From positions 248,001 to 312,000 of the forward strand of contig JANJGN010000189.1 in the NCBI GenBank assembly GCA_026770705.1: a stretch of 64,000 nt of DNA, given 5' to 3'. This document shows, piece after piece, positions 1,870-33,949 of the stretch. The position numbers and the translations under genes were made by a program. Under the pieces are notes generated by a model that was given only the letters and a program-made list of their open reading frames with translations, was not told where the DNA came from and searched no databases. The DNA is from Isurus oxyrinchus (taxonomy: Eukaryota). Every line of letters starts with the position of its first letter. Position 1 is the stretch's first letter.

Positions 1870-3459
1870 GTAGGTGGAAATTCATTCCTTATTTTAAGGT
1901 TTCTCCCTGCTCGTTTCTTCCACAGAAAGTTTTCTGATTTCAAGCTGATTTCAGTGGCAGTCTGTCTCGGTTATACTCAGGAGGCATGTTTGAAATCGAG
2001 CCCCCCCCCCCCCCGCCCAACTTTTTTGCAAAGCTGGGAAGAGGCAATTCCAAGGAAGTGAACATATCCCCACAGGAATTTTAAATGTAACCCACGCCGG
2101 GAATAGTGAGAGGGAGACTGATCCAGCCTGGGAGTGGGTTAAAGAGAGGCTGGGAGTCGAGAGTCGGAGAGAGGGATGGAATGGGGGAGGGAGGGATTGG
2201 AAGAGAGAGACAGAGAGTGGGACGGGGAGGGGTGAAAGGGAAAGAACATAGGTGGGAGAGAGTGACAGAGGGAGAAATTAAAGAAGAGATGCAGAGTGAG
2301 GGAAAGTGAAAAGGGAAGAGAGATTGTCCAAGAGAGAGAAATTAACAGGAAAGGGAGAGTTACAGAGTGAGCGAAAGGTACAAAAATAGTGTGAGAGAGA
2401 GGGAGAGATACAGAGTGGGAGAAGGAGACAGGGGAGAGAGAGAGGGAGAGAGACTGGAAAAGGGAGAGAGGAGAGAAAGATTGGGAGAGAGGGCAATTGA
2501 GCGGAAGAGTAGGAGAGAGAGAGACAGGGAGAGGAGGAGTGGATGAGAGGAAGAGAGAGAGAGATATGGAGCAGGAGAACACCTCCTCCGGTCCCGATGT
2601 TCCTCCAAAATCTCTGAAATTCCTGCATCTCCCGGGTCCCCCTGATTCCCATCGCTCCACCATTGGTGGCCGTGCCTTCAGCTGCCTGGGGCCCTGAGCT
2701 CCGGAATACCCTCCCTTAACCTCTCTGCCTCTCTCTCTCTCTCCTTTAAGATGCTCCTTAAAAACTGACATCTTTGACCAAGCTTTTGGTCACCTATCCC
2801 TAATATCTCCATATGTGACTCAGTGTTAGACTTCTCTCTGATTTACGCTCCGGTAATGTGGGCTGGGACATTTTGCAATGTCAGAGGCGCTGTGTAAATG
2901 CAAGTTGTGAGTGTTATGTGGAAGGGAGACCCCAGGCGGCAGTCAGTGCCAGAGACTGGAGTCATTGTGCGCAGACCGTATCTAATCTCTCCGAATGCAC
3001 AATTGGTTTGACTGTCAGCCAAAGCACTTTTGATATTTGATCCTTCTAACTGTTTATAACCAGGCCTACATCATACACCGAGAGGCTGGTTAATCAACAG
3101 ACACCTTAGAGGATCGAGTGAAAGACAAAGAGGACTTGCATTTCTCTATAAAAACAAAGAAAACTGCGGATGCTGGAAATCCAAAACAAAAACAGAATTA
3201 CCTGAAAAAACTCAGCAGGTCTGGCAGCATCGGCGGAGAAGAAAAGAGTTGACGTTTCGAGTCCTGAGAAGGGTCATGAGGACTCGAAACGTCAACTCTT
3301 GCATTTCTCTAGCGCCTTCCAACACATCAGGACGTCCCAAACTGTTTTGCAGACAATCAAGTGCTTTCTTTCTTTCATGTGAGGTCACTGATGTACTGTG
3401 GGAAAAGAATCAGCCATTGGCGCACAGTAAGATCCCACAGACAGCAGCATGATAATGAC

Positions 3460-4185
3460 CAGCGCGCTCCCAGTACTTGCACTGCAAGTGTCAGTTCAGG
3501 GTGTCTGCTCGATTCTCTGCAACTCTCAGCTCTGAGTTAAAAGGACCACCAGGCGTAATTGAGAAATTACCGAGCTGTCGGAGGGTCAGTACCGGCGGGG
3601 GGGGCAGGACAGTCGGAGGGTCAGTACTGAGGGGGTGCTGCATTGTCAGATGGTCAGTCTTGGAGTGCTGCACTGTCAGAGGGTCAGTACCGGCGGGGGA
3701 CTGCACAGTCGGAGGGTCAGTACTGAGGGGGTGCTGCATTGTCAGACGGTCAGTACTGAGGGAGTGCTGCACAGTCGGAGGGTCAGTATTGAGGGGGTGC
3801 TGCACTGTTGAAGGCGCTGTCTTTCAGATGAGATGTTAAACTGAGACAACATCTGCCCTCTCAGATGGATGTAGAGGATTCCATGGCCACAATTTAAATG
3901 AAGTGCGTCAGGAGTTGGGGGTATGTGTGGAGGGGGTGGTGGGGGCTGGATGGGATGCAGTTATGTCTGCTTTCCTGGGGCAAACATTTATCCCTCAACT
4001 GACATTGGTAAAAAACTGAAAATCGGGGCCATTATCACATTTCTGTTTGTGGGATCTTGCTGTGCGTGAATTGCCTGCTGCGTTTCCTACATTACAGCGG
4101 TGAGCTCACTTCAGAAAAAGTCCTTCCTTCAGCTGTGGAACACTTTGGGCCATCCTGAGGAGGGGAAAGGCGCTATAGAAATGCG
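3460..4185 (+). mobile_element. SINE of the same family with 33-bp array, in hepcidin intron 2
   Basis: Same 33-mer and same body as 1060-1710. Confidence 0.7.
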
Positions 4186-4273
4186 CCATCCTCCTTCCAA
4201 TGACGCGCTTGATTGAAATGATGCCTTCTTTCTTTCCGGAATGTTCTCACCTATTGTGCTCCTGCTTTTCCAG

Positions 4274-4390
4274 GGCTCCTTGCTGCAGCGCCAGAAGAGA
4301 ATGGGCAGACAGCAGCTCTGCAGATTCTGCTGTAACTGCTGTAATTGGAGAGAACCAAATGAGACTTGTGGTCTCTGCTGTAGATATTAG
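4274..4390 (+). CDS. hamp: Hepcidin exon 3: GSLLQRQKR|MGRQQLCRFCCNCCNWREPNETCGLCCRY*
   Basis: Acceptor cctgcttttccAG. Furin site RQKR, then the 8-Cys pattern C-x2-CC-x-CC-xn-CG-x-CC diagnostic of hepcidin. TAG at 4388-4390. Translated by hand. Confidence 0.93.
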   Translation, partial: GSLLQRQKRMGRQQLCRFCCNCCNWREPNETCGLCCRY

Positions 4391-4689
4391 ACCCTGGCCT
4401 CATTCACGCAAGGTCATCCTGCACCATGCCACAGCCTCTCCCCTCCTTATCTACTGCTTAGTAATCTACTTAACACAGGCCCTGTTCATTAATTCCAACT
4501 GAAACTTTACCTGCGTTTTACAGCAGGGAAAGAAGCCATTCGGCCCATCTGTTCCATGCTGGAGTTTCTGCTCCACACGAGTCTCCGCCCACCCCTTCTC
4601 CATCTCACCCCATCACCATATCCTTCTATTCATTTCTCCCTCGTGTGTTTATCCAGCTTCCCCTTAAATACATCGACACTATTCACCTC

Positions 4690-5032
4690 ACGTGACTGTG
4701 TTTGTGTCTGTCTTTATGAGCGTGTGTGTGTGACTGTCAATATGTGTGTGTCAATGTGAATGTGTGTGATTGTGTCAGCGTGTGTGTGTGTATGTGTGAC
4801 TGTCAGTGCGTGTCAATGTGAATGTGTGTGATTGTGTCAGCGTGTGTCTGTGTGTGTGTGTGTGTGTGTTTGTGTGTGTGACTGTGTCAGTGTGTGTCAA
4901 TGTGAATGAGTGAGTGTGTCAGTGTGTCTGTGTGGGTGTGTGTGACTGTGTCAGTGTGTGTCAATGTGAATGAGTGAGTGTGTCAGTGTGTCTGTGTGGG
5001 TGTGGGTGTGTGAGTGTGCAAGTGAATGTGTG
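4690..5032. repeat. (TG)n-rich simple repeat
   Basis: Directly visible. Confidence 0.9.
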
Positions 5033-5229
5033 AGGAATCTTATGACTAAGTCATTTGAATGGATGTTACTGGGGTTAATGATAGTTAAAATTCAGAGAGA
5101 TGTAAAGCGGGCTCCTGATTTTGCTGCTTTATGCTCCCGGGCACAGATTCACCCCGACAATGTGTTCATGATTCACCATTATCTTGTCGGGACTTTAATT
5201 GTAAAGATTATGATTTGTGAAAAAAAATG

Positions 5230-5235
5230 AATAAA
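5230..5235 (+). terminator. Candidate poly(A) signal for hepcidin
   Basis: AATAAA about 840 nt after the stop, followed by a T/GT-rich stretch. Confidence 0.35.
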
Positions 5236-11744: not shown

Positions 11745-14700
11745 CTAGAGAACACACAGAAAGAAATCATCACTGACTCTCCGCTTTCAATCTCTCACTC
11801 TGGCTGAACAATCAAGCTTCATATCACTGCAACATTTGCTGTAATATTGACCCATTCACTGGGATTCAATGTGGAATGAATGTTTTCACTGTAAACACTC
11901 TAAGAGTGGACAATCGGAACTTTCTCCTTAGCGTGGAACATTGGTGAGAATGGATCATTGTGCTGTTGGACTCTCTGTCCAATGTTTCTCTCCATCGCTG
12001 TGTACAGGATTGTGCTGTAGAAAATTCTGGAAACGTTTAGTGCAGGGTGGAAATCCATCTCGGACGCGTGTGCGAATCGGGCAGGATCGAGATGGACTCC
12101 CCCACGGTCTTACACACCCCGCTTAATAAACAGTTCCAATCTTTACCCAGAGAGAGGGGAGAATGTGGAACTCGCTCCCACAGGGAATGGTTGAGGTGAA
12201 TAGTAGCAAATTAGGAAGTGAAATTGCTTGAAAAGCTTGGAGATGCAAGGGTTAAGTGTTACCGTGCTACCACTGGTGGGAGAGTGTAACTACAGCGTGA
12301 TGTTTACATAGGCAATCCCCATTATGAACATGGACATCATGTGAAAAATGGGCACTGGAAAGCTGAGAACTTGATGTAAGCTTTTCAGCAACAGGAATTC
12401 CCTTCCTAAACCTCTCCACTTCCCTCTTACTCTCAGATACTCAAACAAAATTTCATACGAAATCACGTAAGGAGGAATTGGGACAGGTGACTGGTCAAAG
12501 AGTTAGATTTCAGGAAGGTTCTTAAAGTAGGATAGAGAGTTGGAGAGGCAGAGAGTATCTGTGAGTATCTCTGTGCATCTGAGTGTCTGTAATAGACTTT
12601 GCAATTTCCATATTCTTCCATAAATATGAAAGGGAACACAAATCCCAGAATCCAGGTCAACTCTCCGGTGCAGCACTGAGGGAGGTCAGGTAATCCACAG
12701 GGGAGTATGTGCTAGTGTGTTTGTTTGTGAGTGTGTCTTTGTGTGTGCTCATAGATGTGGGATTGTGTGTCTGCAGGTGTCTGTTTAAGGCTGGATATTT
12801 ATGTGTGTTTTTGTAGTGTTTCAATCTGAGAGAGATGTTGAAGTTTGTCTTAACTAACGTTCCACAGTGATGGTTATGAACCCCTCCACTGCTCCATGTT
12901 CATTCTCTGAGCACACTGATAGTCTCCAGTGTCCCTGGATGTAATGTGAGGAATCACCAACCACAGCTCATTGTTGGAACTTGTTCTGTTCATTGTGATA
13001 TTCAGATGTCAGGACCGGACTCAACAAGACAGATTGCAGGTTTACCAACAGAAAGTGAAAAACAATTTATATTTAAAGGGAAGAGAGTGCTGGTTAATCA
13101 GCAAGTGGTCTCTGATTGGAGGAGGTGTTGCCATGGAAAATAATGTGTGTGAGATGTAAAGTTTAGACAGCTTGTCTCTTCATTCAGCAACAATCAAATA
13201 AAGATCAGTTAACTTCTATCGACTGTGAAGCACTTTGAGAGGCATGAGAATGTGGACACTGAGAACGGGCTGCACTGTCAGAGGGTCAGCGCTGAGGGAG
13301 TGCTGATGTAGAATGAAGGGTGTCCGTACTTACCTTGCACATTTAGTACGAGGGTCCGCTCCGATGAAACAGATGGATATCTCACTCTGCAGCTGAGTGT
13401 GTGTCCGTGGTGTTTGAGTGATGGGATCAGGGTCAGAACAGAAGTATAGGTCAGAGTGACACCATGCTGAGTTACAGTGTTTGAGACTGATCCAGGTACG
13501 TCAGTGGGAGTGTCCCAGGTTAAGACAGGTGCTGCTGTTCCATTGCACGTTGTGTTGAAGGTGCAGCTTACATCCACAGGCTTTCCTGCAATAATTTCAG
13601 CAGGGAATATCGTGGGTTTATCTGTGAAATCTAACAGACAGAGAATGGATCCTTTTAGAGAAATATAACGTGAAGCATCAGTTCAAATAGAAATCACAGT
13701 CCCACAAGAAAAAGCACTTTTACAAGGATGATATCAGATCTGAGAGATTACAATGATCAGGAGAGAATTTCCTGCTTTGAGACTTTGGTGTTTCTGTCTC
13801 TCAGCTTAATACACGTTCAGTCCGAGACACTTGAACTGATAATAGTGGGTGAGGGTGAAGGAGCAGACCAGAGTTTGGAGTGCACTACCCCATCATTCAC
13901 TCAGCAATCTGGGCCATTTATTACTCTGCAATTTGTGGGAGCTTGCTGTGCGCAAATTGGCTGCTGTGTTTCTCACATTACAACAGTAAATACAATTCAG
14001 GAATCAGCTCATTGGCTGTGAAGTGATTTGGTCCGTGCTGAGGTGGTGAAAGGTGCTATAGAAATGTGAATCTTTCTTCTGTCGCTATGTCAGACTTCGA
14101 GACAGGATTAGAGAGATCGATGGGAGTGGATAACCTGATAACATTGATGGACACAGTCAATACATTTTATCATTGATATTAAAGTGAGTATTAGAGGTTC
14201 CTTTAGGAGTGAACTGGAAGCTATCACCAGGTTATTGAGAATCAGACAGTGTGTTATAATAAGCTGTGTTTTGTGTTAATATGTAAATGTCATAGTTCGT
14301 GTTATTTCCCATTGAGTGTTGAATGTGAATTGGTGAGTAATTATAACACAGCACTTACCAGAAACGTGAAGCTGGGTTACAGGGTAATAGTTATAGCTCG
14401 GACCATTGTCAAATTCTATTCTGAAAAAATAAGGTCCTGCATCTTCCCGTGTGATGTTGTTTATAATCAGGGAACAGTCGCCATCTTTCAGGTCTCCAGA
14501 CAGCCGGGTCCGATGGTGGAACCGTGGTAACTCGTGACTGTGATCCTTGGAGTGAAAGGCTATAGACGATGTTCTCCATTCCTCATTATTAAGCCAGACT
14601 CCACCTCGCGGTTGGTTTTCCAGACACGATGGATAACTGTAATGACATGGAATCTGTACACAGGAACCTTCCTGCACTGTCACCTCTCGTGGAGTGTCAC

Positions 14701-17700
14701 CTTTCCACTCTTGCGAGGGTTCAGCTGGGGAGAGAAATCTCAATATTTAACTCTGAATGGTTTGTGGATCCACTGAACCCGATATTTACAGATGAGGCTG
14801 AATTGGGGGGATGGTCAATACTGAGGAGAAAGGCAACAAATTATATTGTCAGGAAGAATAGAAAAACAGGATATAATTTAAATGGAGACAGGCTGCAGAA
14901 TGCAGTACAGAGGGATCTGGGTGTCCTTGTACATGAATCACAGAAAGTCAGCATTCAGGAACACCACGGAATGAGGAAGGCAAGTGGAATGTTGGTCTTT
15001 ATTGCAAAGGGATGGAGTATAAAAGGAGGGAAGTCTTGCTACAGCTGCACAGGGTGAGATTGTATCAGGAGCAGTGTGTACAGTTCTGGTCTCCTTACTT
15101 AGGGAGGGATAGACTTGCATTGGAGGCAGTTCAGAGGAGGTTCACTGGGCTGATTCCTGGGATTAAAGGGTTTGTCCTGTGAGGAAATGTTGAGCATGTT
15201 GGGCCTGTATCCATTGGAGTTTAGAAGAATGAGGGGTGACATTATTGAAACATATCCGATTCCGAGGGGGCTTGACAGGGTGGATGCTGGGAGGATGTTT
15301 CCCCCTCGTGGGGGAATCTAGAACCAGGGAGCACAGTTTCGGAATGAGGGCTCTCCCATTTAAGACTGAGGTGAGGAGGAATTTCCTCTCTCAGAGGGGC
15401 GCTAGCCTGTGGAATTCTCTTCCCCAGAGAGCAGTGGAGGCTGGGCCATTGAATAGACTCAAGGCTGAGTGAGGCAGGTTTTTGATCGACAAGGGAGTCA
15501 AGGGTTTGGGGGACAGGCAGGAAAATGGAGTTAAGGCCACAACCAGATCAGTGAGAGCCGGCTCGAGGGGCCGAATGGCCTGCTCCTGTCCCTATTTCTT
15601 ATGTTCCTACATTCTTACCTTCTTAAAATATTAAAGCTGCAGAATAAACATGCAAGTGACTGACCCGCTCGACCCACCTTCCATCTGGGGGTCCCATGGG
15701 GAGGACCCTTCCTGAGCCAGGTCCACCAGCCAACATGGTCTGGATCCGAGCACAGGAGACATGGGGGGGAGTGACTAACAGGCTCCTTGTGACAGGCCCC
15801 GTCTGTCCAATGGCTGGCTTTCAGCTGCCAAGGCCAGAGTGGTCCTTGCTAAAACCGGCTCAGGACAGGCCAGGACCCCTGTGCAGGCCCCCTCCAGCGC
15901 TGCAGCCTCTGTACAAACCCCTCACGCGCTTGTGGAGAGACACAAACAAGGCTGCACATTACCGAGGAGAATCCCCTCTACGGACTAAGGGGCTGACTCG
16001 TCACCTTAAACTCCGCAAATGAGGAGGCTCTCGCTCGGTATCGGGGCTTGGCATTCGCTCAATAAAAATAATCAAATGACATTTTGGTCAGAAATCGAAG
16101 GAGGTTGCACATTCCCTCAAAAATAAGACTCAAGCTGGGGTCGAGGGTCAAAGGGCAACAACTTATATTTACACAACAACTTTAACATGACAAATCACCC
16201 CAAGGTGCTACACAGGAGCGTCATAAAACAAAGTATGTCACCCAGACACATGTGGAGATATTAGCGACAGCTGACCAGAAGAGGTCGGTGTTATGGAGAA
16301 TCTTCAAAGGGGGATGAAATGGATAGTGAGAGAGAGACAGAGAGATAGAGAGAGTGAGAGAGAGAGATGGAGAGGGGTTGAGGGAGGTTATTACAGAGCT
16401 CGGGTCCCAGGCAGCTGAAGGCACGGCCGCCGATGTTGTAGTGATGGGACCGGGGGATGGTCAAGAGGCTGGAATTGGATGAGCACAGAGACCTCAGAGG
16501 GTTGGAGGAGCTGGAGGAGGTTACAGAGATAAGGATGGTTGTAGTGATTGGAGGAGTTACAGAGATAGGGAGGGTTGTAGGGTCTGGAAAATTTAAGAGA
16601 GATTGGGAGAGTGTAGGGTATGGAGGAGTTCGCAGAGATAGAGAGGTTTGTAGTGGCTGGAGGAGGTTGCAGAGATTGGTAGGTTTGTTGTGCAGGATGA
16701 ATTTACAGATATAGGGAAGCGGTGGAGGCTTGAAGAGGTTACAGAGATAGGGAGGGTTGTAGGTACTGGAGGAGGACGAGGAGATTACAGGGATAGTGAG
16801 GAAACAAAGATGAAAATTTGGACATTGAGACTTTGCTTGACCAGGAGCCAGTCTCGGTCATCGAGCAGAGCGGGTGATAAGGGAATGGGACTTGGTGTGA
16901 GTAAGGACGTGGTCAGCAGTTTTGGATGGCCTCAAGTTTATGGAGTGTAGAGCGTGTGTTGGAACAGTCGAGTCTGGAGGTAATGAAGGCGTGGATGAGG
17001 GTTTCAGCAGCAGATGAGCTGAGACAGGGTGATGTCGTGCGATGTTACGGAGGTGGAAACAGACGGTGTTAGTGAGGGCGCAGATATGAGGCCGGAAGCT
17101 CATCTCAGGATCAAATGGGACAACAAAGCTGTGAACAGATTGGCTTCAATCTCAGAGAGCTGCCAGGGAGAGGAATGGAGTTGGTAGCGAGGGAACAGAG
17201 TTTGGAGCGGGGAATGAAGACAATGGCTTCAGTCTTTCCAATATTTAATTGGAGGGAATTTCTGCCCATCCAGTACTGGATGTCGGATAAGCAGCCTGAT
17301 AATTTAGCAGCAGTGGAGGAGTCGAGAGAGGTGGTGGTGAGGTAGAGCTGGGGATCCTCAGTGGACAGGTGAAAACTAACACTGTTCAGATGATGCTGCA
17401 AAGCCATTGCAAGTGATTCTCTGGCTACGATGAGATGGATAAGAATGGAGCCAGGGGAGAGCAGTCCCACCCAGCTGGACGACAGTGGAGAGGTGTTGGA
17501 GGAGGATGGTGTGGTCGAGCGTGTCAAAGGCTGCAGACAGATCGAGAAGGACGAGGAGGGAAAGTTGACCTTTGTCACAGTCACACAGGATGCCATTTGT
17601 GACCTTGATAAGAGCTGTTTCAGCACAGTGGCTGGGGTGGGAACCTGATTGGAGGGATTCAAACATGGAGTGCCAGGAAAGATGGGAACGGATTCAGGAG

Positions 17701-20700
17701 ATGGAAACACGTTCAAGGACTTTGGAGGGGAACGAGAGGCTGGAGATGGGACGGGGGTTTACACGGACAGTGTGAGGGGTGGAAGGTGTAGTGGGGAGGA
17801 GATACTTCACTCAGGGGGGAGGTGTCATCACCCCTCAGCTCGGTTTAGGTTACAGCTATGATGTGGATACAATCACACACAATAAGCTCATGGATCTGGG
17901 AGCAGAAATAGACAAATCATTAAAAATAGTGACGCTGGTTAACACGGCCAAAAAACAAGCAAATCAAACACTATTATTTCCCATTGAGTGTTGGATGTGA
18001 ATTGGTGAGTAATTATAACACAGCACTTACCAGAAACGTGAAGCTGGGTTACAGGGTAATAGTTATGGCTCGGACCATTGTCAAATTCTATTCTGAAATA
18101 ATAATATCCTGCATCTTCCCGTCTGATGTTGTTTATAATCAGGGAACAGTCGCCATCTTTCAGGTCTCCAGACAGCCGTGTCCGTTGGTGGAACCGTGGT
18201 AACTCGCGATTGTGATTCTTGGAGTGAAAGGCTATGGTCCCTCTAGACCTTGTATTCCATGTATTCCATGTGTACCGTTTCACGTACCAGATTCCGACAC
18301 GTGCTCGCCCTACTACATGTGCTGGATAACTGTAGTTACATGGAATCTGTACACACGAACCTTCCTGCGCTGTCACCTCTCGTGGAGTGTCAACTTTCCA
18401 CTCTTGTGACAGTCCAACTGGGGAGAGAAATATCAATATTTAACTGTGGATGGTTTGTAGATCCACTAGACTCGATATCCACCCCCTCCTTCACGGGGTC
18501 AGAGTGGCTGCAGTGTGGACCATCTACAGGACACACAGGGATCTCCCCAATGGTTCACAATGGATGGAAGAGAATCCTGGACACAAAAGCGGAAATATTC
18601 ATGCTACATTGGCTCATGGTGCTCAGGACCCTATTTGTGTACAAACCTGCTCTGCAACAGAACTGAAGTTGGGGAAAATCCATTTGGAATTCCACTGTCC
18701 AGGGCATTGGGTTAACTTGCTAAGTTTGTTTTAAATCTAACATTTATTTTTGGTCTGTTGCCTTAAAGGAAGTGTAACTGGGAGTCAGGTTAATTAGGAA
18801 TTTTAGGAGTTATTATAGCAGTCATTGTAGTCTTACGTACGTGCTTGAAATCTTTTATTTTGATGACAAATATTTTAATTTATTGTTTTAAATCTCTAAA
18901 TGTCTTGATGGAGTTATTGCTTCTGAATTCAGTGCACAATCATAACAAATACAAATTGCAAAATCATTATGACAGTGTGACCAAGTTTCTCTCATGGACT
19001 TGGTCTGCCTGGCACACATCACCTGCCAAGTGATAACACTGTTGTAATATGCCTTTCAGGGACAGCAGCATGACATCACTCGAGGGGAAGTGTGTCATGT
19101 GATTTTTAGGAGTTGGGCTTGGCTTAAGGAAGCTCTCTGTGTATTTGTGTGCGTTAGGCATAAGGTCTATCTTTAAGTTCAAGTTTAGTTTGTATTTCTG
19201 TATTTGGGTGTTTAGAAAAGGGGGAACTTGACGTAAAAAGAAGCCAGCATTCCATTGAGGTTTTATGACTGTTGAAGGGAAGTCAAAACAAATACAAGGT
19301 GTAAGAAACTGTGCTGTTGCCTAGCAACAGTGATCCATAGGGAAGGACCTACAGAGACCGAGAAAAACAGAAAAGTACTTTCAGTTCTGTTGAAAGGAGT
19401 TGCCAGGAGAAGCAGCAAAGGAGCGGGACAGATAGTCAGTCCCAAAGTAAAGATGAAGCGAAAACCATCGAGTGGAACAGGAGAAAGGGCCCAAGAAAAC
19501 CTTCTAGTCAAATCTGTAAAAGGCCCTGTTAAGTGAAGTTAAGAGTGAGGAGCAGAAGAAGGCTTCAAGCTTAAAGGAAGAAGCAGCAGGACACAGGCCT
19601 AAAGCAAAATAGGCTTGTGAGAAGCCAGAAGATCCTAGGAGACACCACAGGTTGGTGACTCATTACTACGGCCATGTGAAGCCATGGTGTTCCATTGACA
19701 CGGCTGAGCATTGGAGAGACAGGGCGTGGAAGGAAGGCTGAATGCACGTGGCGATCCAGGGGGCAGGAACATGGGAAGGAGAGTTTGAAATAGTGAAAGT
19801 GGACCCGTGTGGAAGGTGTCTGAGTGAAAGTGTCATGTTGGAGAAGATTCCAAAGTGAGTTCTTGGAGAGTGGAGATTGGAAACCCTCATATGAAAGAAG
19901 CTTTTCAGTGAGACTGGTTGGCTCACAGTGTAACAAGCGTCTGGGGACAGATGAGACATAGAATTTGTTTCAAGTGGGCTCTGCCACTTGGTTTAAGAGT
20001 GTGGTGTCCCTGACCACAGGTCGTCTATTGGTTTACATCGACTGTGTAGTTAGTGTGAACATGAGAGTATAAGATAGTTATTGTAACTTGTGTTATCTTT
20101 GTGAATCTGTATATATCTGCAAAGATATAGGTCTGGGTGAAGGAGTAATGTAATATAGTTTGTCTTTCCTAGTTTAATAAATGTTTTATTCTTTTGTTAG
20201 AAGTTCATCAGATGATTCCTGTGACTCTGTTCAGTAGCCGCACTCCACATTCCTAAATAAAAAATAAAAGTTAGGACCTATCAAACTGAGTTCCACCCTG
20301 GGATCTGACTTGCCCAGTAGTAACATCAGCTGGGATGATAACACCATCCAGTCCAAGTTTCACTTTGGCCTGTGAGCAGAACACAGCTCACAGTTTGGCT
20401 GCAGGTGTCTCCCAGCTTTCTATCCTTGTATATCTGTTCTCATGTCCCCATTCTAAATAAATGAACCCACAATGTATTTACCCAATTCCGAATCAGTGGC
20501 TGGTGCCTTTATATCATTATAAAAACACAACATGGTGATCAGCGGTGGCCAAACATTCTGGCAGCAAGATTCAGTACAGGTATGACGTGGTGAACAGCCT
20601 TAGATCGAGATACATGACATGAGACGACCCTCGAAACTTTGGTCAGACCACAACAGAGACATAGCATCAGAGAGGGTTGAAATCGCAGTGTACTGACTGC

Positions 20701-23700
20701 TCAGGAAACCTTTGAAGACACAGTGACGGGAAAGAGCTCAAGTAAAGAGCTGGGGAGCAGACGGATCCCTCGTGGTGAGATTACAGCACACGGCCTGTAG
20801 GTCAGTGAGTGGGACAGTGTGTATCGCCAGGACCAGCAGCGGGTTAGCTCAGTCAGGGAAGGCGAGTGACCAGGGTGTGGGCTGGATCGATAGTGAGCAA
20901 GGGAGAGTCAAACACACAAAACCATTATAAAAATCAGCCCAGAGAAGTTAGTGATTATAACGGGCGGCTTCGAGATTGCTGAACAGCAAATTAAATAAAA
21001 AACAAAGACTCCATTACTCCGTGGTGTGTTCCTGCCACAACCCGTCTCCGTGGGCGGTGCTTCGGAAAAGCACACGAAAGGGGCTAAAGCGACACTCATC
21101 CCAGATCCTGTAGGAGAAGGAATGTCAAACGAATATTATCAGAATGTCCACGAAATTCCCCAGTTTGAACTGGGATGTAGCTGACCGACTATCTGAATTC
21201 AGAATGTTTAAACAGCGTACAGAGCTCTGGTTTCCTGATTCAGGTGTGACTGAACCAGACGAGCCACCCATAAAAATTCACCTCGCGATTGGGAATGAAG
21301 GTCTACACAGGCTGAACACGTCAGGATTAACAGCAGAAGAGCGAAAGGATCCCCAATAGATATGGACGATATTGGAAGACAGGTTCAGAATCAGGTTAAA
21401 CTCCATATTCATCAACTAGAGTTTATGTCATTTCATCAGCCTTCACAATCCATAGACCACTTCATCAGCCGATGTAGAGAAAAGGGTACGCACTGTGATT
21501 TCAAACACAGAGCCTGCAGACACAGTTGTTGAGTTGGTGATCGCATCCACTCCCATGGAAGCCTTCCAGAAAGATCTGCTAGATAAGACCAAAACCTATA
21601 GCATTGAAGAGCTACTCAAGGATGGACATAAATACGAAGTGATCCTCGCAGGTCAACAAGCTTACAGGTCCTCAGTAAACATCAGTTGTTGACACACTCA
21701 CTAGAACATCCAAACCTAGTGAGACGTGTGGAAGGTGTGGCCTTCTTCAGGCACCAAGGAAATGCCCAGCTTTCCACCAATCCTGCAAGGCTTGTGGCAG
21801 AAAGGGCCATTGACAGCGGCAGGGCACTAGAGCAAAGGCTGATGCAGTTACAAAGAGCCGTGCGCTGATCCAAACAGACCCTACACAATGGGGAACCTTC
21901 AAGCAATAAGAATGACCATCCGCTATCCCATCAGGAACATAGACATGTGGTGATTGACAAACCAGGAAATGGCGATGATGTGCATGGCGAGACGAGGAGC
22001 GGTGATCGATATTCCACCTCTCACACATATCCTGACGTGGCTTGCCAATAAGTTGTGAATTGTGGTCTTTATTGATCTCTCTGGGCACATCGAATAAACT
22101 GAAAATGTCCCATAGGGGTGGGATTTTCTGGCCCCACCCACTGCCAGGATTGTCCGGTCCGGCCGAAAGCCAATGGATTTATGTCTGTCCCTGTCTCAGA
22201 AACTACCCCATTACCTCTGTTCATGACATAACATTGAAATATGCAGAAAGATTCAACAATATTGGCAGTTTCAAGGGAGCTGCATCATTACACCTGCAGG
22301 AGAATGCAAGTCTGTCAGACTCCTTGCATTAAAATTAATACAATCCAACTTTGTCACACTATCCTGTGCCTTAACTGGCCAATAATTTCTATGCCTTCCG
22401 GCTTCACTTTCTCTCTCTTCTAATTTTGGCTGTGCCTCTCCCTCTGCTGAACCTCCTCTCGGGATCCCATCCCCTGCCATGTTAGTTTAAAGCCTCCCCA
22501 ATTGCATCAAGGGCAAAATGCCAATTGAAACCAGGGACAACATCCAAGAATGACAATCCCACAGATCACTGTGAGCTTTTAAAGACACCTCCAGACAAGG
22601 TTACCACCACAAGATCTGGGCGTCACAGCAGATCACGTCAATGCGTTAGAGACTCAAATATTAGCAGATCTAAACACTTGTATAATTGTCAAGAAATTTG
22701 AAAATGATACCAGAAACCTCTTGTTCCCTGTCCTTCTCAAAGATCCATCCCTGCAGCGGTAGCCTTAAGAGTTATTGATGTGGGGCTTAATTTATCAGAT
22801 TGTAGAATGATCCGGAAGAGAAGGAAGCCATTTGCCCATCGAACATGTGCTGGGCCTTTGAAAGATCTGTCCAATAAGTCCCACTCTCACCTCTGCTCTC
22901 TCCCCCACAGCCCTGCAAAATGTCCCCTTCAAGTATTTATCCAGTTCCCCTTCTGAAAGTTCCTGTTGAATCTGCTTCCACCGGCCTTTCAGGCAGTGAG
23001 TCAATGGTCTCTCTCTGAGCTGCAAAGTGCTCAGATTCTGTGAAATTTAAACTCTGCAGCAGATCAGAGACAATCATGATAACTCAGAATATTTGACAGT
23101 TTTACACACGGACAGCTTTGCCTTCCTTCTCTCTTTCAGTTATCTTGCTCCCTTATTGAAGTATCTGGCATGGTGAGAATGGACAGGAAGTGTGACACTG
23201 AACAGCCTGTCTATTCTAGGAGCTGCTGTGTTGTCTTCATGGGAAATTCTGACTAAAATCAGCAAAAGACACAAATTTCAGGGCAATGTTATCCGAGTCC
23301 TAACATCGGGATAGACTTCATTCCCCAGTTTTTATCCCTGATTCTCTATGCAGCCGATCGCTCCCCTGTCACTGGCTGAACTACACTGGCTCCCAGTCCA
23401 GCAATGACTCAAATTTCAAATTCTCATCATCGATTTCTTACCCCACCATCCCCCCTCTACACTCTCTATCTGTGTAACCTCCTCCAACCCTAAAACCCTC
23501 TGTGATCTCTGCTCTCCTCCAATTCTGCTGTCAGACAGGGAGTCAGTGTATATCAGTGAGCACAGGGGTGATGGGTGAATGGGACTTGGTGTGAGTTTGT
23601 ACACTGCCTCACTGCTGAATCAGTTCCCAATCAGAGCTCAATAAGAATGATCTTTTACAAAGACTATTCACCATGAATCTGTCCGAGCTGACGATGATAT

Positions 23701-23743
23701 TACCTTGGAGAAGCGACAGGAGGAAGCAAGATTTCCCGATCAT
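11605..23743 (-). CDS. Gene C: putative activating Siglec-like receptor, leader-V-V-C-TM(Arg), 409 aa; join(23704-23743,18031-18417,14359-14724,13334-13630,11605-11744)
   Basis: All exons have GT-AG boundaries and phase 1, giving an open frame of 1230 nt. Siglec Cys pattern and YxFR motif in both V domains. Confidence 0.8.
12859..13010 (-). pseudogene. Pseudo-exon: 3' half of a C2-set Ig exon homologous to 43459-43740
   Basis: Matches ...MNRTSSNNELWLVIPH...GAVEGFITITVE. 5' half and acceptor missing, 1-nt deletion near 12910, donor GTGAGT changed to GTTAGT. Confidence 0.85.
13334..13630 (-). CDS. Gene C Ig C-type exon (Siglec domain-2 type)
   Basis: DFTDKPTIFPAEIIAGKPVDVSCTFNTTCNGTAAPVLTW...LSCRVRY...VLNVQ; 297 nt, phase 1/1; carries the BC-loop Cys for the interdomain disulfide. 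Confidence 0.92.
14359..14724 (-). CDS. Gene C V-set exon V2
   Basis: AEPSQEW...GSCVQIPC...DCSLII...DAGPYFFRIE; 366 nt, phase 1/1; essential Arg present. Confidence 0.93.
14785..15605 (+). mobile_element. CR1 LINE 3' fragment (paralog at ~51075-51905)
   Basis: RDLGVLVHESQKVS, FLSQRGASLWNSLP and the typical CR1 3' tail. Confidence 0.85.
16820..17770 (-). mobile_element. L2-type LINE RT fragment (paralog at ~53000-53950)
   Basis: ETALIKVTN, LLVLLDLSAAFDTLDH, LQLNIGKTEAIVF; frameshifted. Confidence 0.85.
18031..18417 (-). CDS. Gene C V-set exon V1 (includes end of signal peptide)
   Basis: VGLSQEW...GSCVQIPC...DCSLII...DAGYYYFRIE; 387 nt, phase 1/1; essential Arg present. Confidence 0.93.
19043..20343. 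mobile_element. Solo-LTR-like element (paralog at ~55215-56505)
   Basis: TGTAAT...ATAACA termini, internal AATAAA near the right end, no coding capacity. Confidence 0.5.
21144..22320 (+). mobile_element. Degraded Ty3/Gypsy gag-like remnant (paralog at ~57310-58490)
   Basis: SEFRMFKQRTELWF...IHLAIGNEGL...; the same premature stop after KDPQ in both paralogs, so it was dead before the duplication. Confidence 0.6.
23704..23743 (-). CDS. Gene C leader exon MIGKSCFLLSLLQ
   Basis: acaATG start, donor CAAG|GTAAT, phase 1. Completes the signal peptide with VGLSQ of V1. Upstream acceptor at 23786-23787. Confidence 0.85.
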
Positions 23744-24029
23744 TGTCCACTCCCAGATATTTCCCCAGCTTCTAACTCTGAAGTTCTGAAAGAGAAAGGA
23801 GTTAATGAGACCTCACCTCTTGTCCGACAGCTCTCGAGAGATCAGAACTGCTTTTAGACAATATCTTCACAGACTAATTTGATTCTCTGTGGGATGATAG
23901 GTGCTCTGCAGAGAGTTACAAGGCTTTAAGAAAGAAAAGCAAGGAAGGACTTGCATTTCCATAGCACCTTTCACCTCCTCAGGGTGTCCCAAAGCTCATG
24001 TCTCTGCAATTCCTCATCCCTTTGGTGCC

Positions 24030-24240
24030 AAGACTGTGGTTGAATGGCCTCATCCTGTTCCTGTGTAACAGATTCAAGGTGGCTAAATAGGCCTCTTCCT
24101 TTTCCTGTGTGACAGGCCTGAGGGGGCTGAATGGCCTCCTCTTGTTCCTGTGTAACAGGCTCGAGGGGCTGAATGGCCTCCTCCTGATCCTGTGTAACAG
24201 GCTCGAGGGACTGTATGGCCTCCTTCTGTACTGTAACCTT
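24030..24240. repeat. ~42-bp tandem repeat derived from the CR1 3' tail
   Basis: About 4-5 copies of gtgtaacaggctcgaggggctgaatggcctcctcctgttcct. Confidence 0.75.
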
Positions 24241-24311
24241 GTTGCTGTAACTGCCTCTTTTGTTTCATTCAGCTGAATCTTCAGCTCTTTAGTCTATTCC
24301 TTTTATCTCTT

Positions 24312-24772
24312 GGGTCAGTACTGAGGGAGTGCTGCACTGTCGGAGGGTCAGTACTGAGGTAGTGCTGCACTGTCAGAGTGTCAGTACTGAGGGAGTGCTG
24401 CACTGTCAGAGGGTCAGTACTGAGGGAGTGCTGCACTGTCAGAGGGTCAGTACTGAGGGTGTGCTGCACTGTCAGAGTGTCAGTACTGAGGGAGTGCTGC
24501 ACTGTCGGAGGGTCAGTCCTGAGGGAGTGCTGCACTGTCGGAGGGTCAGTACTGAGAGAGTGCTGCACTGTCGGAGGGTCAGTACTGAGTGAGTGCTGCA
24601 CGGTCAGAGTGTCAGTACTGAGGGAGTGCTGCACTGTTGGAGGGTCAGTACTGAGGGAGTGCTGCACTGTCGGAGGGTCAGTACTGAGGGAGTGCTGCAC
24701 TGTCAGAGGGTCAGTACTGAGGGAGTGCTGCACTGTCAGAGGGTCAGTACTGAGGGAGTGCTGCACTGTCAG
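24312..24772. repeat. 33-bp SINE-derived tandem array (~14 copies)
   Basis: Near-perfect units visible. Confidence 0.92.
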
Positions 24773-25029
24773 AACTGCCATACTTCAGATGATGTTTGAA
24801 ATTAGCAACATGCCTCGTTTAAAATTCTAAATCATCAGCTCAATATAAATAGATTAGTACTGTATGTTTCACTTTACTGCAAATTGTTCATGGTTTCATT
24901 TCCTTGTTAACCAGGCTCATGTGATCACTATTTTTAAATAATGTTTGTTATTTGGAACTACAAACAATTTAAAGTTTTAAATTTTTATTGCACTCTATAA
25001 TTATATTACCTCTGATATCTGTCTCTACA

Positions 25030-25905
25030 ACCCTGGGGACTCATTCTCCTGTAAGTAAAACAATTGCTGCTCCTGTCAAATCTCTTCTGTACAGTATGGT
25101 CTCTGGATGTCCCAGAACACTTTACAATAGAGTTCACCCTTTCTTTGAAGCGCAAGAGGTTTTTATAAAACTAAATTAAACATTGATTAACAAGAAAAAT
25201 GATTTTTAAGCATTCACATATGTCTATAAATTACCACGATAATAACTTCTAAATCTCTTAATTAATCTAACTTCCATTTACACTTTTGTTAAGGCAGCAG
25301 TAAAACACAGAGACTTTAAAAGTCCCAGGAAAAGTAAATGATACTCTGAATAGTAGTGTTCAAAGTGAGTTTTCTTAACTTCAGTCCCTGGAGGCAGCAG
25401 TTTGGTACATGCAGTCTGAAGGCTTTTCACCGTTGCTAGTTCTTAAAAACACCGACCCTTACACACAGCCTTCACTCCTTGATACATATTTTCTCCTCTG
25501 AACGCAAATTCCCATTGTTTCACTATGTCTTTGGACTTTATCTTTGTAATAATACAAATCTCTCATAGCCCTAACTTTTACCTGAGCTTTGGCAAAAATA
25601 AACACACTGTTTCTTATCTTGACCTGGCTCGGTGACACATTTCTCTCCTTCTTTGAAAACAATCTAGTTTGGTTTAATTTAAAATGCAAATTGCTTCCTT
25701 TACACTTCACATTCTAAAACTTCCCCATGTTTACCTAATAAACAGTTTACGAACTTCTCACATCAAAAAACCCGGACCAGCTTCCTCTAATTCAAATAAG
25801 TCTCACACAAACACATCACAGACACATGTGGACACAGAGACATGGACTCTATTTTACAATAAATTCCAATAACATTATGGAGATTATTATATATTCCTGA
25901 CATGC
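25030..25905. mobile_element. LTR-like element related to 32448-33409
   Basis: Shared blocks in the same order (attaacaa..., aaggca-cagt, aaaaataaacacact, aaaatgcaaatt). Confidence 0.5.
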
Positions 25906-26182
25906 TGTCACTCAGTCGCAGTTTCCTGTNNNNNNNNNNNNNNNNNNNNNNNNNNNNNNNNNNNNNNNNNNNNNNNNNNNNNNNNNNNNNNNNNNNNNNN
26001 NNNNNNNNNNNNNNNNNNNNNNNNNNNNNNNNNNNNNNNNNNNNNNNNNNNNNNNNNNNNNNNNNNNNNNNNNNNNNNNNNNNNNNNNNNNNNNNNNNNN
26101 NNNNNNNNNNNNNNNNNNNNNNNNNNNNNNNNNNNNNNNNNNNNNNNNNNNNNNNNNNNNNNNNNNNNNNNNNNNNNNCGGG

Positions 26183-26412
26183 GAGTGAACTGGCTCCCTT
26201 TCTATTCAAACCCCATGGTTGGTCGCAAAAAAGCGTTTTAAAATATATTTTCCCCCAAATGCAATTTCCAAAACAAGTGTCTTTGGTTGTTAAGGTTCAA
26301 CTTAACAACCAAGACACTTGTTTTGGAAATTGCATTTGGGAGGAAATATATATTTAAACGCTTTTTTGGCGACCAACCCATGGGGTTTGAATAGAAAGGG
26401 AGCCAGTTCACT
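26183..26412. repeat. ~230-bp palindrome between two N gaps
   Basis: agtgaactggctccctttctattcaaaccccatgg... is the reverse complement of ...ccatggggtttgaatagaaagggagccagttcact; centre near 26295. Confidence 0.9.
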
Positions 26413-28399
26413 NNNNNNNNNNNNNNNNNNNNNNNNNNNNNNNNNNNNNNNNNNNNNNNNNNNNNNNNNNNNNNNNNNNNNNNNNNNNNNNNNNNNNNNN
26501 NNNNNNNNNNNNNNNNNNNNNNNNNNNNNNNNNNNNNNNNNNNNNNNNNATGCATACACAAACAAACGCACACACGCACACATAAACACACACACACACA
26601 CACTCACAGACAGGTACACAGAAACGCATAGTCATACACAAAGGCACACACACACACACAGACAGGCTCACACACACACAGACAAATGCATGCACACACA
26701 CAAGCTCACACAGACAAGTACAAAGACACTACTCATACACACAGACAGGCACAGACACACACACACACACGCTCACACAGGAAGGCACACACACACACAC
26801 ACATACACAAACACACACATACTCACAAACACAGACAGATATCAGAGGTAATATAATTATAGAGTGCAATAAAAATTTAAAAGAGGATATGATTATATTG
26901 TTTGCTTGTCTTTGTGGTGTCGGTTGTGAATGTTGAAGCTGTTTTAAATTAGTTGGTTTGCTCTAGAATCCTGTAGTTCATCTAGCTCAGACTTGGATGT
27001 GTTTGAAGACATTCTGTTAGCTTCAGACAGAGAGAGAGAGGAAAGCGAAAGAGAGACAGAGAGAGAGAGAGAGAGAAGGAAAAAATCATTTCTGCTCTTT
27101 TCCAGCAGTGTTTGTGGAAGACTGCCATATTTCTTTTTCCCCTCCTTTCTCTTATATCTGCTTGGCAGAACCATTTGTTAAACTTCTGTCTGTATATTCC
27201 TGAGAGGGAATTCGATCAGCATGTTTTACATTCATTGTTATAGTCCAAGTATTCCCATTTTTTATCTTTGCATCTCCAAAACATTTGATGCATTTCAAGA
27301 TATAAATCAACAGGAGATGGGGGTATTGCATCCTCCACAGGGGGTTTTGAATGGCTGATGATTATCCGCTTGGTGAGCAGTTCCCAATGTTTTGACAGAA
27401 CTACAGCTGATCAAAGTCCAGCACTTTGCATTTTAATACCTTCCTTTGAAGAGTGTCCCTGTTTGAAGTGGACCCTGACACACCGCAGGCGTGAATTTCC
27501 ATGCAACAGGATCTGAAGTGCAATTCATTTGAACTTTTCCAGAGAAGTGATCAACTTCACAGTATCAGCAATCAGATCACTTGTGTCAGCCATTTTTCAC
27601 CTGTGCACAATCTTGTATTTCTTTGAAAAATAGGTCACTTTTAGACGGTTCAATACATCTTTGGTCTGTTAGCTAAGTTGTAGGAAGCTCTTAATCGCAG
27701 TTTGCTGTCGTTGGGATATTATCTTTGTGTGTGTGTTTGTACATGCGTGTGAGTGAGTGTGTGAGTGAGTGTGTTTGTGTGTGAATGTGAGTGTGTTTGT
27801 TTGTGTATGTGTGTGTGCATGACTATGTGTGTGAGTGTGAGTGTGCCTGTGTGTATGTGTGTCTGTCTGTATGTGTGTGTGTGTGTGTCTGTATGTGTGT
27901 GTTTTTGTGTGAGAGAGAGAGCATTTCACAGAGTGAAACTTCCCTGAGTCTGGCCGCTGTGTTTAACATTTAAGCCACACAGACAGGATGTGGTTAAAAG
28001 GTGAAACCACAAGGAGTGAGTGTGTTTCTCAGTGACTGTCTCTCTGTGGGTTTCCTGTGGGTTTCTGTGAACTGCCTGTGGTTTTAAAAAAAAATCTTCC
28101 AACCCCACATGCACGGCATCAAATAAGGATTTGGAAGCTGCAGCTCAAAGAGTAACTAGTCCCCCGAGAATTCACAGCCCCTCAAACACAGATTAACAGC
28201 ATTAATCCTGACCGTCAGCCCACTCACTCATTGCCTCTTGTCTCAGACACTAGAAAGTGGAAGTTAAGGCCGGATTTTCACTCCCAGGTCGGGGATCACA
28301 GAGACGGCAGAATTCCCGGCTCCGCCAACTCGACCTCTAAACCTGTCAGTCCCAGATTCCGATGTGTGGTCCAGGGGTCGGGGGGCTGTGGGTGGGTCG

Positions 28400-29860
28400 G
28401 TCATGGTGGTGGGGGTGGGGGGAGGGGGGGTGGTAGGGATGGTTGGGGAGGGGGGTGGGTTGGTCGGACATGGTGGTGTGGGTGGGGGTGTGGATGGTGG
28501 GGGGGTGGAGGTGGGGAAGAGGGTGGGGGTCTGGATGCGGGTGTCGGTGGGAGTGTGGGTGGGGCTGGGGGTGGGGGTGGGGGGTGGTGGGGGTGGGGGT
28601 TGTGGGGGGTGGTAGCATGGGTGATGGTGGGGGTGGAGGTGGTAGGGGGTGGGGGGAGGGGGTGGGGGTGGTGATGGGGTGTGGGTGTGGGTGGGGGCGG
28701 TGGGGGTGGGGGGCAGGGGAGGGGGGTGGTGGTGGAGGTGGTGATGGGGGTGGAGGTGGGAGAGAGGGGGGTGGGGATGGGGGGTGGAGATGGGGGAGGG
28801 GGGGATGGGGGTGTTGGTGGGTTTGGGGGTGGGGGATGGGGTGGGGGGTGTTGGTGAGGGTAGGGTGGTGAGGGAGGGGTTGATGGTGGGGGTGGTGGGG
28901 GGTGGGGGTGCGGTGGGGGGTGGGGATGTTGGGGGTGTGGGTGGGGGAGGGGGTGGTGGGGGTGGTGGGGGTGCGTGTGGGGGTGGGTGTGGGGGTGGGG
29001 GTGTGGGGTTGGGGAGGGGTAGGGTGTGGGGTTGGGGGGGTGGGGGTGGGGGAGGGAGTGGTGAGGGTGGGGGAGGGAGAGGGTTTGGAGGTGGTGGTGG
29101 GGGTGGGGGAGGGGGTGGGTTTGGGGGTGGGTGTGGGGGGTGGGGGGGTGGGGTGGGGTTGGGAGTAGGGGAGGGGTGGGGGGTGTGGGTGGGGCCGTGG
29201 GTGGGGGGTAGGGAGGGGGTGGGGTGGGGTTGGGCGTGGGGGGTGGGGGGTGGGGGGTAGGGAGGGTGTGGGGGTGGGGTTGTGGATGGGGGTGGGGGTG
29301 GGGGTGGGGGTGGTGGGGTGTGGGTGGGGGTGGGGGTGGGGGTGGTGGGCGTGGGGGGTGGGCGTGGGGGTGTGGATGGGGGTGGGGGTTGGGGTGGGTG
29401 TGGTGGGGGGTGGGGGTGTGGGTGCTGGGCGTGGGGGTGTGGGGGGTGGGGGTGGGGTGTGGGGGTGGGGGTGGTGGTAGGTGTGGGGGAGGGGGAGGGT
29501 GTGGGTGGGGGTGGGGGTGGGGTGGGTGGGGGGTGGGGGTGGGTGGGGGGGGGTGGGGGTGGGGGTGGGTGGTGGGGGTGGGGGGTGGGGGTGGGTGTGG
29601 GGGTGGGGGGTGGGGGTGGGTGGTGGGGGTGGGGGTGGGGATGTGGGTAGGGGTGGGTAGGTGTGTGGGGCTTTGGGTGGTGGGGTTGGGTGTGGGGGAG
29701 GGGGTGGGGGTTGGGTTTGGGTGTGCGGGTGGTGGGGGTGGGGGTGGGGGAGGTGGACGGGGTGGGGGGTATGGGGGAGGGGGTGGTGGGGGTGGGGGTG
29801 GGGGTGGGGTGTGGGTGTGGGGGTGGTGGGGGTGGGGGTGTGGGTGGGGAGGGGGTGATG
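28400..29860. repeat. G-rich low-complexity tract, (GGGGT/GGGGGT)n
   Basis: About 1.45 kb of almost only G and T on the + strand. Confidence 0.95.
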
Positions 29861-31409
29861 TGGTCTAGAATAGCAGTCCGACTGGGTGACCCCGGAGCGG
29901 TGAGGGGTCAGGGGAGGGCCCGGTGGGGGTCGGGTCCCTCGGGCACCGATAAAAAGCGGGGCCTTCAGAAAGGCCCATTTGAGAGGTGGGTGGTCAATGG
30001 TGAAGACCCTGTGTCTCGGGGGAGACGTCGTCGTCTTGTCAGGCGAGTGTCTGACTGTAAACTCTGTCCGCCTGTTACCTGAGCCTGGAACGTTCGGCCC
30101 ATCATGGGCTTTCCCATCAATGGTGAAGTCCCTGTGGGGGAGGGGCAGTCCCTTGAGTAATGGTGGGGACAATGGACGAGCTTCTTTATGTGGGAGGGGT
30201 CTCACCAGGGATTGGCTGAGAGCAATTGGGAGATGGGAGGAGCTCATGAGAATCTGTTTTTACACAAGGAGCGTCTGGCGATGACCCCGCCCCACACAGG
30301 GGCAGCCCTGGCTACATGGCCACGCCCCCCAGCTGCTCTGTCATTGGCCGCTTCCTCATCCTCATCCCTTCCAGATTCTTCCAAACGGACAGAGGAGCAG
30401 GCAGCACATTCTTCATACCCTTGCTGGGGCAGATTGCAGAGCTCCACCTGAGGCCAATATTTACCCCCAACTAACACCCTAAAAACAGATGGTCTGGCTC
30501 ATTCTCACATTGCTGTTTGTGGGAGCTTGCTGTGCGCAAATTGACTGTGGTGTTTCCTACATTACAACGGGGATCTGCACTTCACAGATAGTCCTTCATT
30601 CCCTGAGAAATGGTTTTGAACAGTGGATGCTGTGGAACAGTAGGAAACATGGCAGACAATTTCTGCACAGCAGGATCCCACAAACAGCAGTGAGATACAG
30701 ACCCAGAACATCTGTTTTTTTTAATGATGTTGGTTTAGGGATAAATATTGGTCCCAGGACACTGGGGATAACTGCCCCACCCGACTCCATACCCACCCCC
30801 TACACTTCACCCAAAAAGTGTCCATGGGGTTTTTGACATCCATCCGAGGTGTCCACTCTGTGCCTGTTCCAGGATCTTGAGGCTCAAGACCCAACATTGG
30901 GTTCACTTTGAGCCTATCCAATCAGGCACAGGGACTGTTCCCACAAACTGCCAGGCCCTGACTTAAGGCTATTGTTCCCTCTCGGCATGAGAGGGATGAT
31001 GGGTTGAAGGTCATCTTTCACCCGAATCCTGTCTTAACAACATTGTAAACGCAGTAGGAAAAATCCCACTGGCCCCTTGTATCTTAACAACATCGTAAAC
31101 ATGACCTAAAGAATCCCCTGGTCACCCCTGAGTGTTTCTAATATTGTAAACACAGTGGGCATATTTCCTCCAGCCTCTGAGAGGTAAAACTATGACACTA
31201 GAGCACCGCCACTGGCAGGAGGGTGTAACTACAGTGTGACATGTTTACATGGGAATGTTACATTACAAATGAAGGTACATGATTGTAAATAATGAAAAGG
31301 GCATGTGATAACAGGAAATGGTGCCTTGAGAATGGAATTATTCACCAGAGAATGGTATTCACATTTGAAAAACAATGTACAGAAATGTCTGAGCATTTTA
31401 ATTGCTTGT

Positions 31410-33506: not shown

Positions 33507-33700
33507 CTTGTATTAACAGATGTAACATTATACATAATTCATAAGCTTCTCACAATCTTTTACAGCATGGAAAAAGGTGCAGCATTCAGAAAGCTCACTC
33601 AGAAACAATAAAAAAAAGTTGAGCAACATCATATTTCTGTTCATTACTATTTGGCCATGTTGGCTGCACACACCCCACAGCCCCGCTCCCTGTTTCACAC

Positions 33701-33949
33701 TCAGTTTTTCTGGAACCTGATCTGTGCGTATTCCGTGTCCTCGCTCCTGTGCACAGTCCTGTCACCGCCGGGCAGCTTTGAAAAGTTGATGTTGGCGTAG
33801 AGAAGCTCGTCGGGTTTGTCAGGGTTCCCATGTCCAACATCGCCTCCTACTGGACCTTCAGAGAGATCCCGGGGAGCTGGGGTCTCCCCCTCACTAGTTG
33901 TGTCTCTGGTTGTGTTCCGGGGCTCAGTAATCAGCACGTTCTGTTTACC
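33701..33949 (-). CDS. Gene B terminal exon, distal copy: ...DELLYANINF...DTEYAQIRFQKN* (ITIM + ITSM-like)
   Basis: Acceptor tttctctgtAG, phase 0, 249 nt; LxYxxI and TxYxxI motifs. Confidence 0.88.
   Translation of the reverse strand, partial: GKQNVLITEPRNTTRDTTSEGETPAPRDLSEGPVGGDVGHGNPDKPDELLYANINFSKLPGGDRTVHRSEDTEYAQIRFQKN

Follow-up and report, generated by a model that had tools for sequence, protein, structure and literature searches.

A hepcidin gene of Isurus oxyrinchus predicted to encode a 29-residue peptide with a long acidic loop and no His3-Phe4 pair

Detailed knowledge of the hepcidin-ferroportin axis comes from mammals and a handful of teleosts. Within a 64,000-nt window of Isurus oxyrinchus DNA (the whole stretch analyzed here), one exon is predicted to encode a 29-residue peptide, hereafter the 29-mer, in which the cysteines of hepcidin are combined with an unusual loop and an unusual N-terminal arm. 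Would such a peptide still act on ferroportin? If it does, the His3-Phe4 rule is not universal in jawed vertebrates, and hormone and receptor have co-evolved; otherwise, either sharks possess a canonical copy not seen here or their iron is regulated in another way. Either outcome would date the hepcidin-ferroportin axis and makes the gene a test of early vertebrate iron control. We put at roughly 0.5 the probability that the 29-mer is a hormone-like hepcidin still acting on its own, co-evolved ferroportin.

Such genes may already carry the name 'hepcidin-like' in automated genome annotations. No paper on cartilaginous-fish hepcidin was found in the open literature, nor, by a phrase search, any on glycosylated hepcidin, subscription journals lying outside the scope of both searches. 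Articles are cited below by PMC number for what stands in the portions available to us; those of PMC6795676, PMC3832898, PMC7067429, and PMC4690021 contain nothing on shark hepcidin, and in that of PMC9207270 a hepcidin appears among the plasma proteins of the nurse shark. Word-indexed protein searches (71-2000 and 31-100 residues) returned no candidate and also missed known fish hepcidins, so their blanks are uninformative. A phmmer search of 1.84 billion representatives gave a sole match, P0003, a repetitive singleton of 577 residues that is not a hepcidin. The best ESM Atlas score (0.76) belonged to a plant cluster without a family and was rejected, and none of the 592 pattern matches from a metagenome scan was confirmed.

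Gene structure and transcription

The coding part of exon 3 specifies 38 residues followed by a stop codon; the predicted mature peptide is made up of the final 29. It matched the Pfam Hepcidin profile PF06446 at 31.6 bits (cut-off, 27; E 2e-7). The mature peptide has Cys at positions 7, 10, 11, 13, 14, 23, 26, and 27, giving the spacing C-x2-CC-x-CC-loop-C-x2-CC, and this full pattern occurred only here in a six-frame scan of the window, in which 1,030 of the 64,000 nt are N. A sequence-only reading of this DNA had proposed a hepcidin of 29 residues with all eight cysteines; the translation and the profile score bear out both points. Judged by its sequence, the stretch is a hepcidin coding exon, a new variant in loop and arm within a known family. 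The 29-mer contains four Arg and two Glu (net charge, +2) and has a computed mass of 3483 Da with four disulfides and without glycan. The RQKR found directly before it occupies the identical place in the hepcidins of tilapia and mandarin fish (PMC10663414; PMC6887715). A second, minimal R-x-x-R site in the exon 3 product ends at Arg3 and is lost in organism C (see below).

Table 1. Positions of the features discussed, numbered from the first letter of the window.
Feature	Positions	Strand	Basis or content
Hepcidin exon 2, 57 nt, phase 0/0, 19 pro-region residues	1813..1869	+	Splice sites; 5' boundary predicted
Intron 2, GT...AG, 2404 nt	1870..4273	+	Donor and acceptor context; depth step in X2
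Candidate gene-conversion tract: acceptor, end of pro-region, mature residues 1-8	4257..4324	+	Differences between organisms A and C
Hepcidin exon 3, coding part	4274..4390	+	End of pro-region, convertase site, mature peptide, stop
RQKR convertase (furin-type) site	4289..4300	+	Motif RX(K/R)R; predicted cleavage
Predicted mature peptide, 29 aa, 8 Cys	4301..4387	+	Translation
N-terminal arm, six residues, human length, no His3/Phe4, Leu6	4301..4318	+	Translation, alignment
Cys5-Cys6 loop, 8 residues, one Arg and two Glu	4343..4366	+	Translation, alignment
Sequon N-E-T	4358-4366	+	Translation
3' UTR to candidate AATAAA at 5230	4391..5235	+	X2 contigs to 4520; poly(A) signal predicted
CD22/MAG/Siglec-like Ig exon cluster, neighbor outside the hepcidin gene	13278..54611	-	Pfam, PDB search

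Sequencing runs from related organisms were used to follow the gene beyond the window. Of 24 runs listed, 20 contain the hepcidin stretch, and four were used: X1 and X2 (organism A), X5 (organism B), and X15 (organism C). Their contigs were compared with positions 4200-4520 at 80% likeness, and differences were listed from 5%; the end of this comparison stretch sets the limit of 3' UTR coverage in X2. None of the 24 runs is on record as RNA, and X2 was treated as RNA by guess, a guess supported by the presence of the exon 2-3 splice in its contigs. Exon 2 is flanked by an AG acceptor with a pyrimidine tract and by a GTAGGT donor. Among the 596 X2 contigs placed on the comparison stretch, nine continue 5' of 4273 with 27 letters that exactly match 1842-1868, the end of exon 2. 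The summed depth rises about 500-fold at the acceptor, being about 1.2e3 on the intron side and 6-7e5 in exon 3; contig depth is no measure of expression and cannot rank genes. Exon 2 is spliced to exon 3 across the GT-AG intron, and the gene is transcribed, in a close relative (organism A). In one X2 contig, exon 3 is instead joined to a cryptic splice donor at 3218, which lies within a short repeat of intron 2 (3190-3218, forward strand); a related copy of this repeat is found at 10271-10296.

In organism A, four listed non-coding positions differ from the window, and no listed coding position does. This organism is the same or a very close species and, given the four non-coding differences, may be another species. 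Contigs of X1 and of X5, whose coverage stops at 4468, span the coding part of exon 3, again with no coding difference listed.

Exon 1 with the signal peptide was not found in positions 1-1812, and the window starts only 1.8 kb upstream of exon 2, so exon 1 presumably lies upstream of the window; a three-exon layout is the norm of the hepcidin family (PMC6887715). The missing exon is the one point in favor of a pseudogene or orphan exon, which the sequence-only reading had anticipated should no transcript exist. The nine spliced contigs in a close relative speak against this, as do the intact frame, the canonical splice sites, the identical coding sequence in organisms A and B, and the closeness of the window's edge, and we regard it as highly improbable. 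The presumed intron 1 contains a 37-nt tandem repeat in 21 copies (217-999, forward strand).

In mammals, HAMP, USF2, and MAG share a locus (PMC4453067). About 9 kb downstream of the hepcidin gene, on the opposite strand, begins a cluster of CD22/MAG-like exons. All four V-set exons tested matched Pfam V-set and Ig_CD22 above the cut-off, and five of six further Ig-like exons were above a cut-off; the best PDB matches of the one V-set exon searched were Siglec-5, CD33, Siglec-8, and MAG. Because this cluster adjoins it, the hepcidin gene appears to lie at the expected HAMP site, as viewed from the downstream side. The upstream side extends beyond the window and may hold a tandem copy.

The arm and the loop compared with known hepcidins

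Human hepcidin-25 (HAMP; the chain of PDB 1M4F and 6WBV) and the 29-mer agree in the register of their eight Cys, in having six residues ahead of the first Cys and two beyond the last, and in Phe9 and the Cys-Gly that follows the loop; both genes have MAG/CD22-type neighbors. The 29-mer differs in its loop (eight residues versus four, acidic versus basic, with a sequon added) and in lacking His3, Phe4, and the N-terminal copper site; the two are identical at 10 of 19 aligned residues. With teleost Hamp1 it shares the RQKR site, a six-residue arm ending in Leu6, and presumably the three-exon layout taken as the family norm, whereas its arm matches the Hamp1 motif at one of six positions (Leu6), has no His3, and is combined with a longer loop. 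The closest solved sequence is 1S6W, with 15 of 19 aligned residues identical, which we take to be the hepcidin of hybrid striped bass, Hamp2-type and antimicrobial. Both have P-N in the loop, a loop sequon, and an Arg-aromatic C-terminus, but 1S6W has one residue before the first Cys instead of six, a loop of five residues instead of eight, and no acidic residue. With regard to the teleost Hamp2 type, the 29-mer points both ways: it lacks the iron-regulatory motif, but its arm is six residues long where that of 1S6W is one. Since 1S6W also carries +2 over the aligned part, equal to the 29-mer, net charge would be no bar to antimicrobial action.

The active patch of human hepcidin consists of His3, Phe4, Ile6, and Phe9 (PMC7915682). 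The hormone touches ferroportin with its first six residues and binds the metal at Cys326/His507 with its C-terminal carboxylate (PMC9882908), a picture with which PMC7655804 is consistent. In sea bass, Hamp1, not Hamp2, lowers ferroportin, and the teleost Hamp2 type is induced by infection and kills directly without an effect on ferroportin (PMC5665920). In teleost Hamp1, the RQKR site is followed by the motif QSHLSL (PMC10663414). At positions 3 and 4, where the iron-regulatory type has His and a hydrophobic residue, the 29-mer has Arg and Gln; it keeps the six-residue arm, Leu6, Phe9, and a two-residue C-terminal tail, Arg-Tyr. The sequence-only reading had denied the peptide a ferroportin-type N-terminus. 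This is right as to His3 and Phe4, which are absent (organism C has His at position 4), and too sweeping as to the remainder, because Phe9 is kept, Leu6 is as in the fish motif QSHLSL, and arm and tail are in register.

The eight-residue Cys5-Cys6 loop containing N-E-T, against four residues in human hepcidin, had been recognized correctly: it follows from the translation and from the four-residue gap that the alignment to the chain of 1M4F/6WBV requires there. PR73 is active although the last 16 hepcidin residues, loop included, are replaced (PMC9882908). The four-residue insertion of the 29-mer falls in this part, which is dispensable in PR73. A single-sequence AlphaFold2 model of the peptide consisted of two helices (pTM, 0.38) and had no Foldseek match; run without an alignment, the model is uninformative on the fold.

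The mature peptide has a single sequon, N20-E21-T22, with Cys23 directly after it and nine residues following the Asn. The chance of a sequon in an eight-residue loop is about 3% (computed with approximate amino-acid frequencies), and by itself the sequon is a weak signal. Nor is it unique, because the corresponding loop of 1S6W, a hepcidin chain of 21 residues, has N-M-S; the initial emphasis on the sequon as distinctive was overstated. C-terminal NXT sites are efficiently glycosylated after translocation by STT3B (PMC3613688), and disulfides can hinder glycosylation at cysteine-proximal sites, which require MagT1 (PMC4137057). For N-E-T, an NXT site at the extreme C-terminus that adjoins a disulfide Cys, we give about even odds to a putative N-glycan. 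Loop and sequon are identical across organisms A, B, and C. This was considered as a signal of conservation or selection and dropped, because such identity is expected when the background divergence between A and C is about 1%.

A second copy and a mosaic tract

One X2 contig (record 9, 101 nt) aligned without a gap to 4362-4443, differing at 12 of 82 letters (85% alike). Its first 19 letters were unaligned; read in register from the codon at 4343 they translate to NKKGTK, and they were not found in the 64-kb window within three mismatches. If Cys23 is kept, the loop of this second copy would be at least eight residues long, Lys-rich, and devoid of a sequon. A long loop thus looks like a trait of a small hepcidin family in this lineage and not of one neofunctionalised copy, and its earlier interpretation as an innovation of the window's copy would no longer stand. 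The Lys-rich sister would also be the likelier antimicrobial candidate, because the loop of the 29-mer is acidic; the antimicrobial role first suggested for the 29-mer was overstated.

The second copy is represented by one contig with 19 loose letters and was present in one of the four runs compared. Minor letters in X2, reaching 4.6% at 4304 (four contigs) and 7% at intronic 4257 (one contig), point to a second template. Listed were 11 of 603 contig pieces and 6 of 23 loose ends. X1, X5, and X15 gave one contig each at 80% likeness; they comprise 141, 645, and 162 million letters, where other runs of A and C reach 3.0-4.5 billion, and are partial data sets. We consider it quite probable that the second copy is a true paralog, and it could be carry-over from another species. 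Four minor X2 contigs over 4273-4391 (records 4-7) differ by two to four letters (record 4: four in 71 nt, depth 9717); they may stem from the 5' part of the second copy, from a third copy, or from error bubbles.

Of the 12 differences listed for organism A versus organism C, 11 fall within 68 nt (the tract of Table 1), and three of the 11 are intronic. Divergence is 16% in the tract and about 1% outside; that of the second copy is 15%. Random placements were equally tight in 2 of 200,000 trials, or in 29 of 200,000 when two unlisted differences were added outside the tract. Six of the seven changed codons are non-synonymous, four of them in the arm. The mature peptide of organism C (X15) carries G2S, R3Q, Q4H, and L6F with a silent change at Arg8, its pro-region has two changes, and no difference is listed in 4325-4461. 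With Ser2, Gln3, and His4, its arm is nearer the QSHLSL motif than that of the window. Selection on the protein is insufficient to explain the tract because of the three intronic differences. Gene conversion between paralogs, in one direction or the other, would fit the pattern best; a collapsed contig in X15 is a possible source of the difference. Intron 2 of organism C also has a 22-nt insertion at 4225, 48 nt from the acceptor on its 5' side.

All of this might be read more simply, with an ordinary single hepcidin, a Lys-rich contig that is carry-over, and a tract produced by selection on the arm or by a chimeric assembly. One copy in 64 kb, one contig each in X1, X5, and X15, and a second copy in only one of four runs agree with that account. 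The three runs are partial, however; the minor letters of X2 point to another template, the intronic differences escape arm selection, and the divergence of the tract equals that of the second copy to within a percent (16% and 15%). We hold a single hepcidin to be rather improbable.

Function of the 29-mer and surroundings of the gene

If the 29-mer is a hormone, its precursor would be secreted by means of a signal peptide on exon 1 and cut after RQKR. The peptide would fold as a bent hairpin of four disulfides, its distal turn longer by four residues, and would plug the outward-open cavity of its own ferroportin. Leu6 and Phe9, together with the disulfide core and the C-terminal carboxylate, would make the contacts, those made elsewhere by His3 and Phe4 having been remodelled. 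The acidic loop would lie outside the known binding epitope, where an N-glycan might slow clearance and leave the target unchanged. The Lys-rich sister would be the likelier antimicrobial member of a paralog family that shares the lengthened loop, and in at least one lineage gene conversion would have traded the N-terminal arm between copies.

The PF06446 match, the exon 2-3 splice, the HAMP-type neighborhood, the length of the arm, Phe9, and the tail favor such a hormone, as may the arm of organism C, nearer to QSHLSL, and the placement of the insertion in a dispensable part. Against it, His3 and Phe4 are absent from the contact arm, so that by the human and sea-bass rules the peptide should bind poorly; its core appears closer to 1S6W than to the 25-residue human chain; and a canonical copy could lie upstream of the window.

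The main alternative is a neofunctionalised paralog that has left ferroportin for an antimicrobial or other target, iron being controlled by another copy. Teleosts divide the two jobs between Hamp1 and Hamp2 (PMC5665920), at least two copies appear to exist here, and the missing His3 and Phe4, the 1S6W-like core, and the predominance of non-synonymous changes relative to organism C, most of them in the arm, all suit it. In a variant, conversion from the cationic sister would have overwritten the arm, so that ferroportin activity was lost in this lineage only. Yet the arm is of full length with Leu6 and Phe9, the loop is acidic where that of the sister is Lys-rich, the downstream neighborhood is that of HAMP, and no His3-Phe4 copy occurs among the 11 of 603 contig pieces listed, in which differences below 5% are unlisted. 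We judge a departure from ferroportin somewhat unlikely. The sequence-only reading had called the gene a paralog: a second copy seems to exist, which makes this plausible, but the gene itself has the usual HAMP neighborhood on its downstream side.

Carried further, the hormone reading suggests a two-hepcidin system of sharks independent of teleost Hamp1/Hamp2, in which an acidic, N-glycosylated ferroportin hormone without the His3-Phe4 arm would be paired with a Lys-rich, long-loop antimicrobial sister, the arm having been swapped by recent gene conversion; taken as a whole, this proposal is speculative and unlikely to hold in every part. A tolerated four-residue insertion with a glycan site would mark a position for a half-life-extending group. 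The 29-mer and the natural variant of organism C are short enough for synthesis and direct comparison.

Several further features were seen in the window. Between the hepcidin gene and the Ig cluster, 6900-8900 (forward strand) contains broken LINE-type reverse transcriptase fragments, with a weak RVT_1 match, below the cut-off, at 7500-7886. A G-rich, low-complexity stretch of 1.6 kb at 28264-29907 (GC 0.69; GC skew 0.77 in a 2-kb bin) is open in several frames and is probably satellite or assembly noise. On the reverse strand, near-identical open frames of about 160 codons at 35317-35799 and 37944-38423 lie in a duplicated 2.6-kb block. Four further I-set/C2-like Ig exons at 40011-45021 (reverse strand), two of which (43193-43759 and 44473-45021) are near-identical, are the stalk of a long CD22/sialoadhesin-like receptor. 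Two similar blocks at 13278-22200 and 49526-58450 (reverse strand) form a tandemly duplicated Siglec cluster; a C2-set exon accompanies two CD22-like V-set exons in each block. One V-set exon (54120-54611, reverse strand) has Thr where the other three have Arg; as Arg at that position is, we presume, essential for sialic-acid binding in Siglecs, this exon possibly encodes a non-binding Siglec-like domain.
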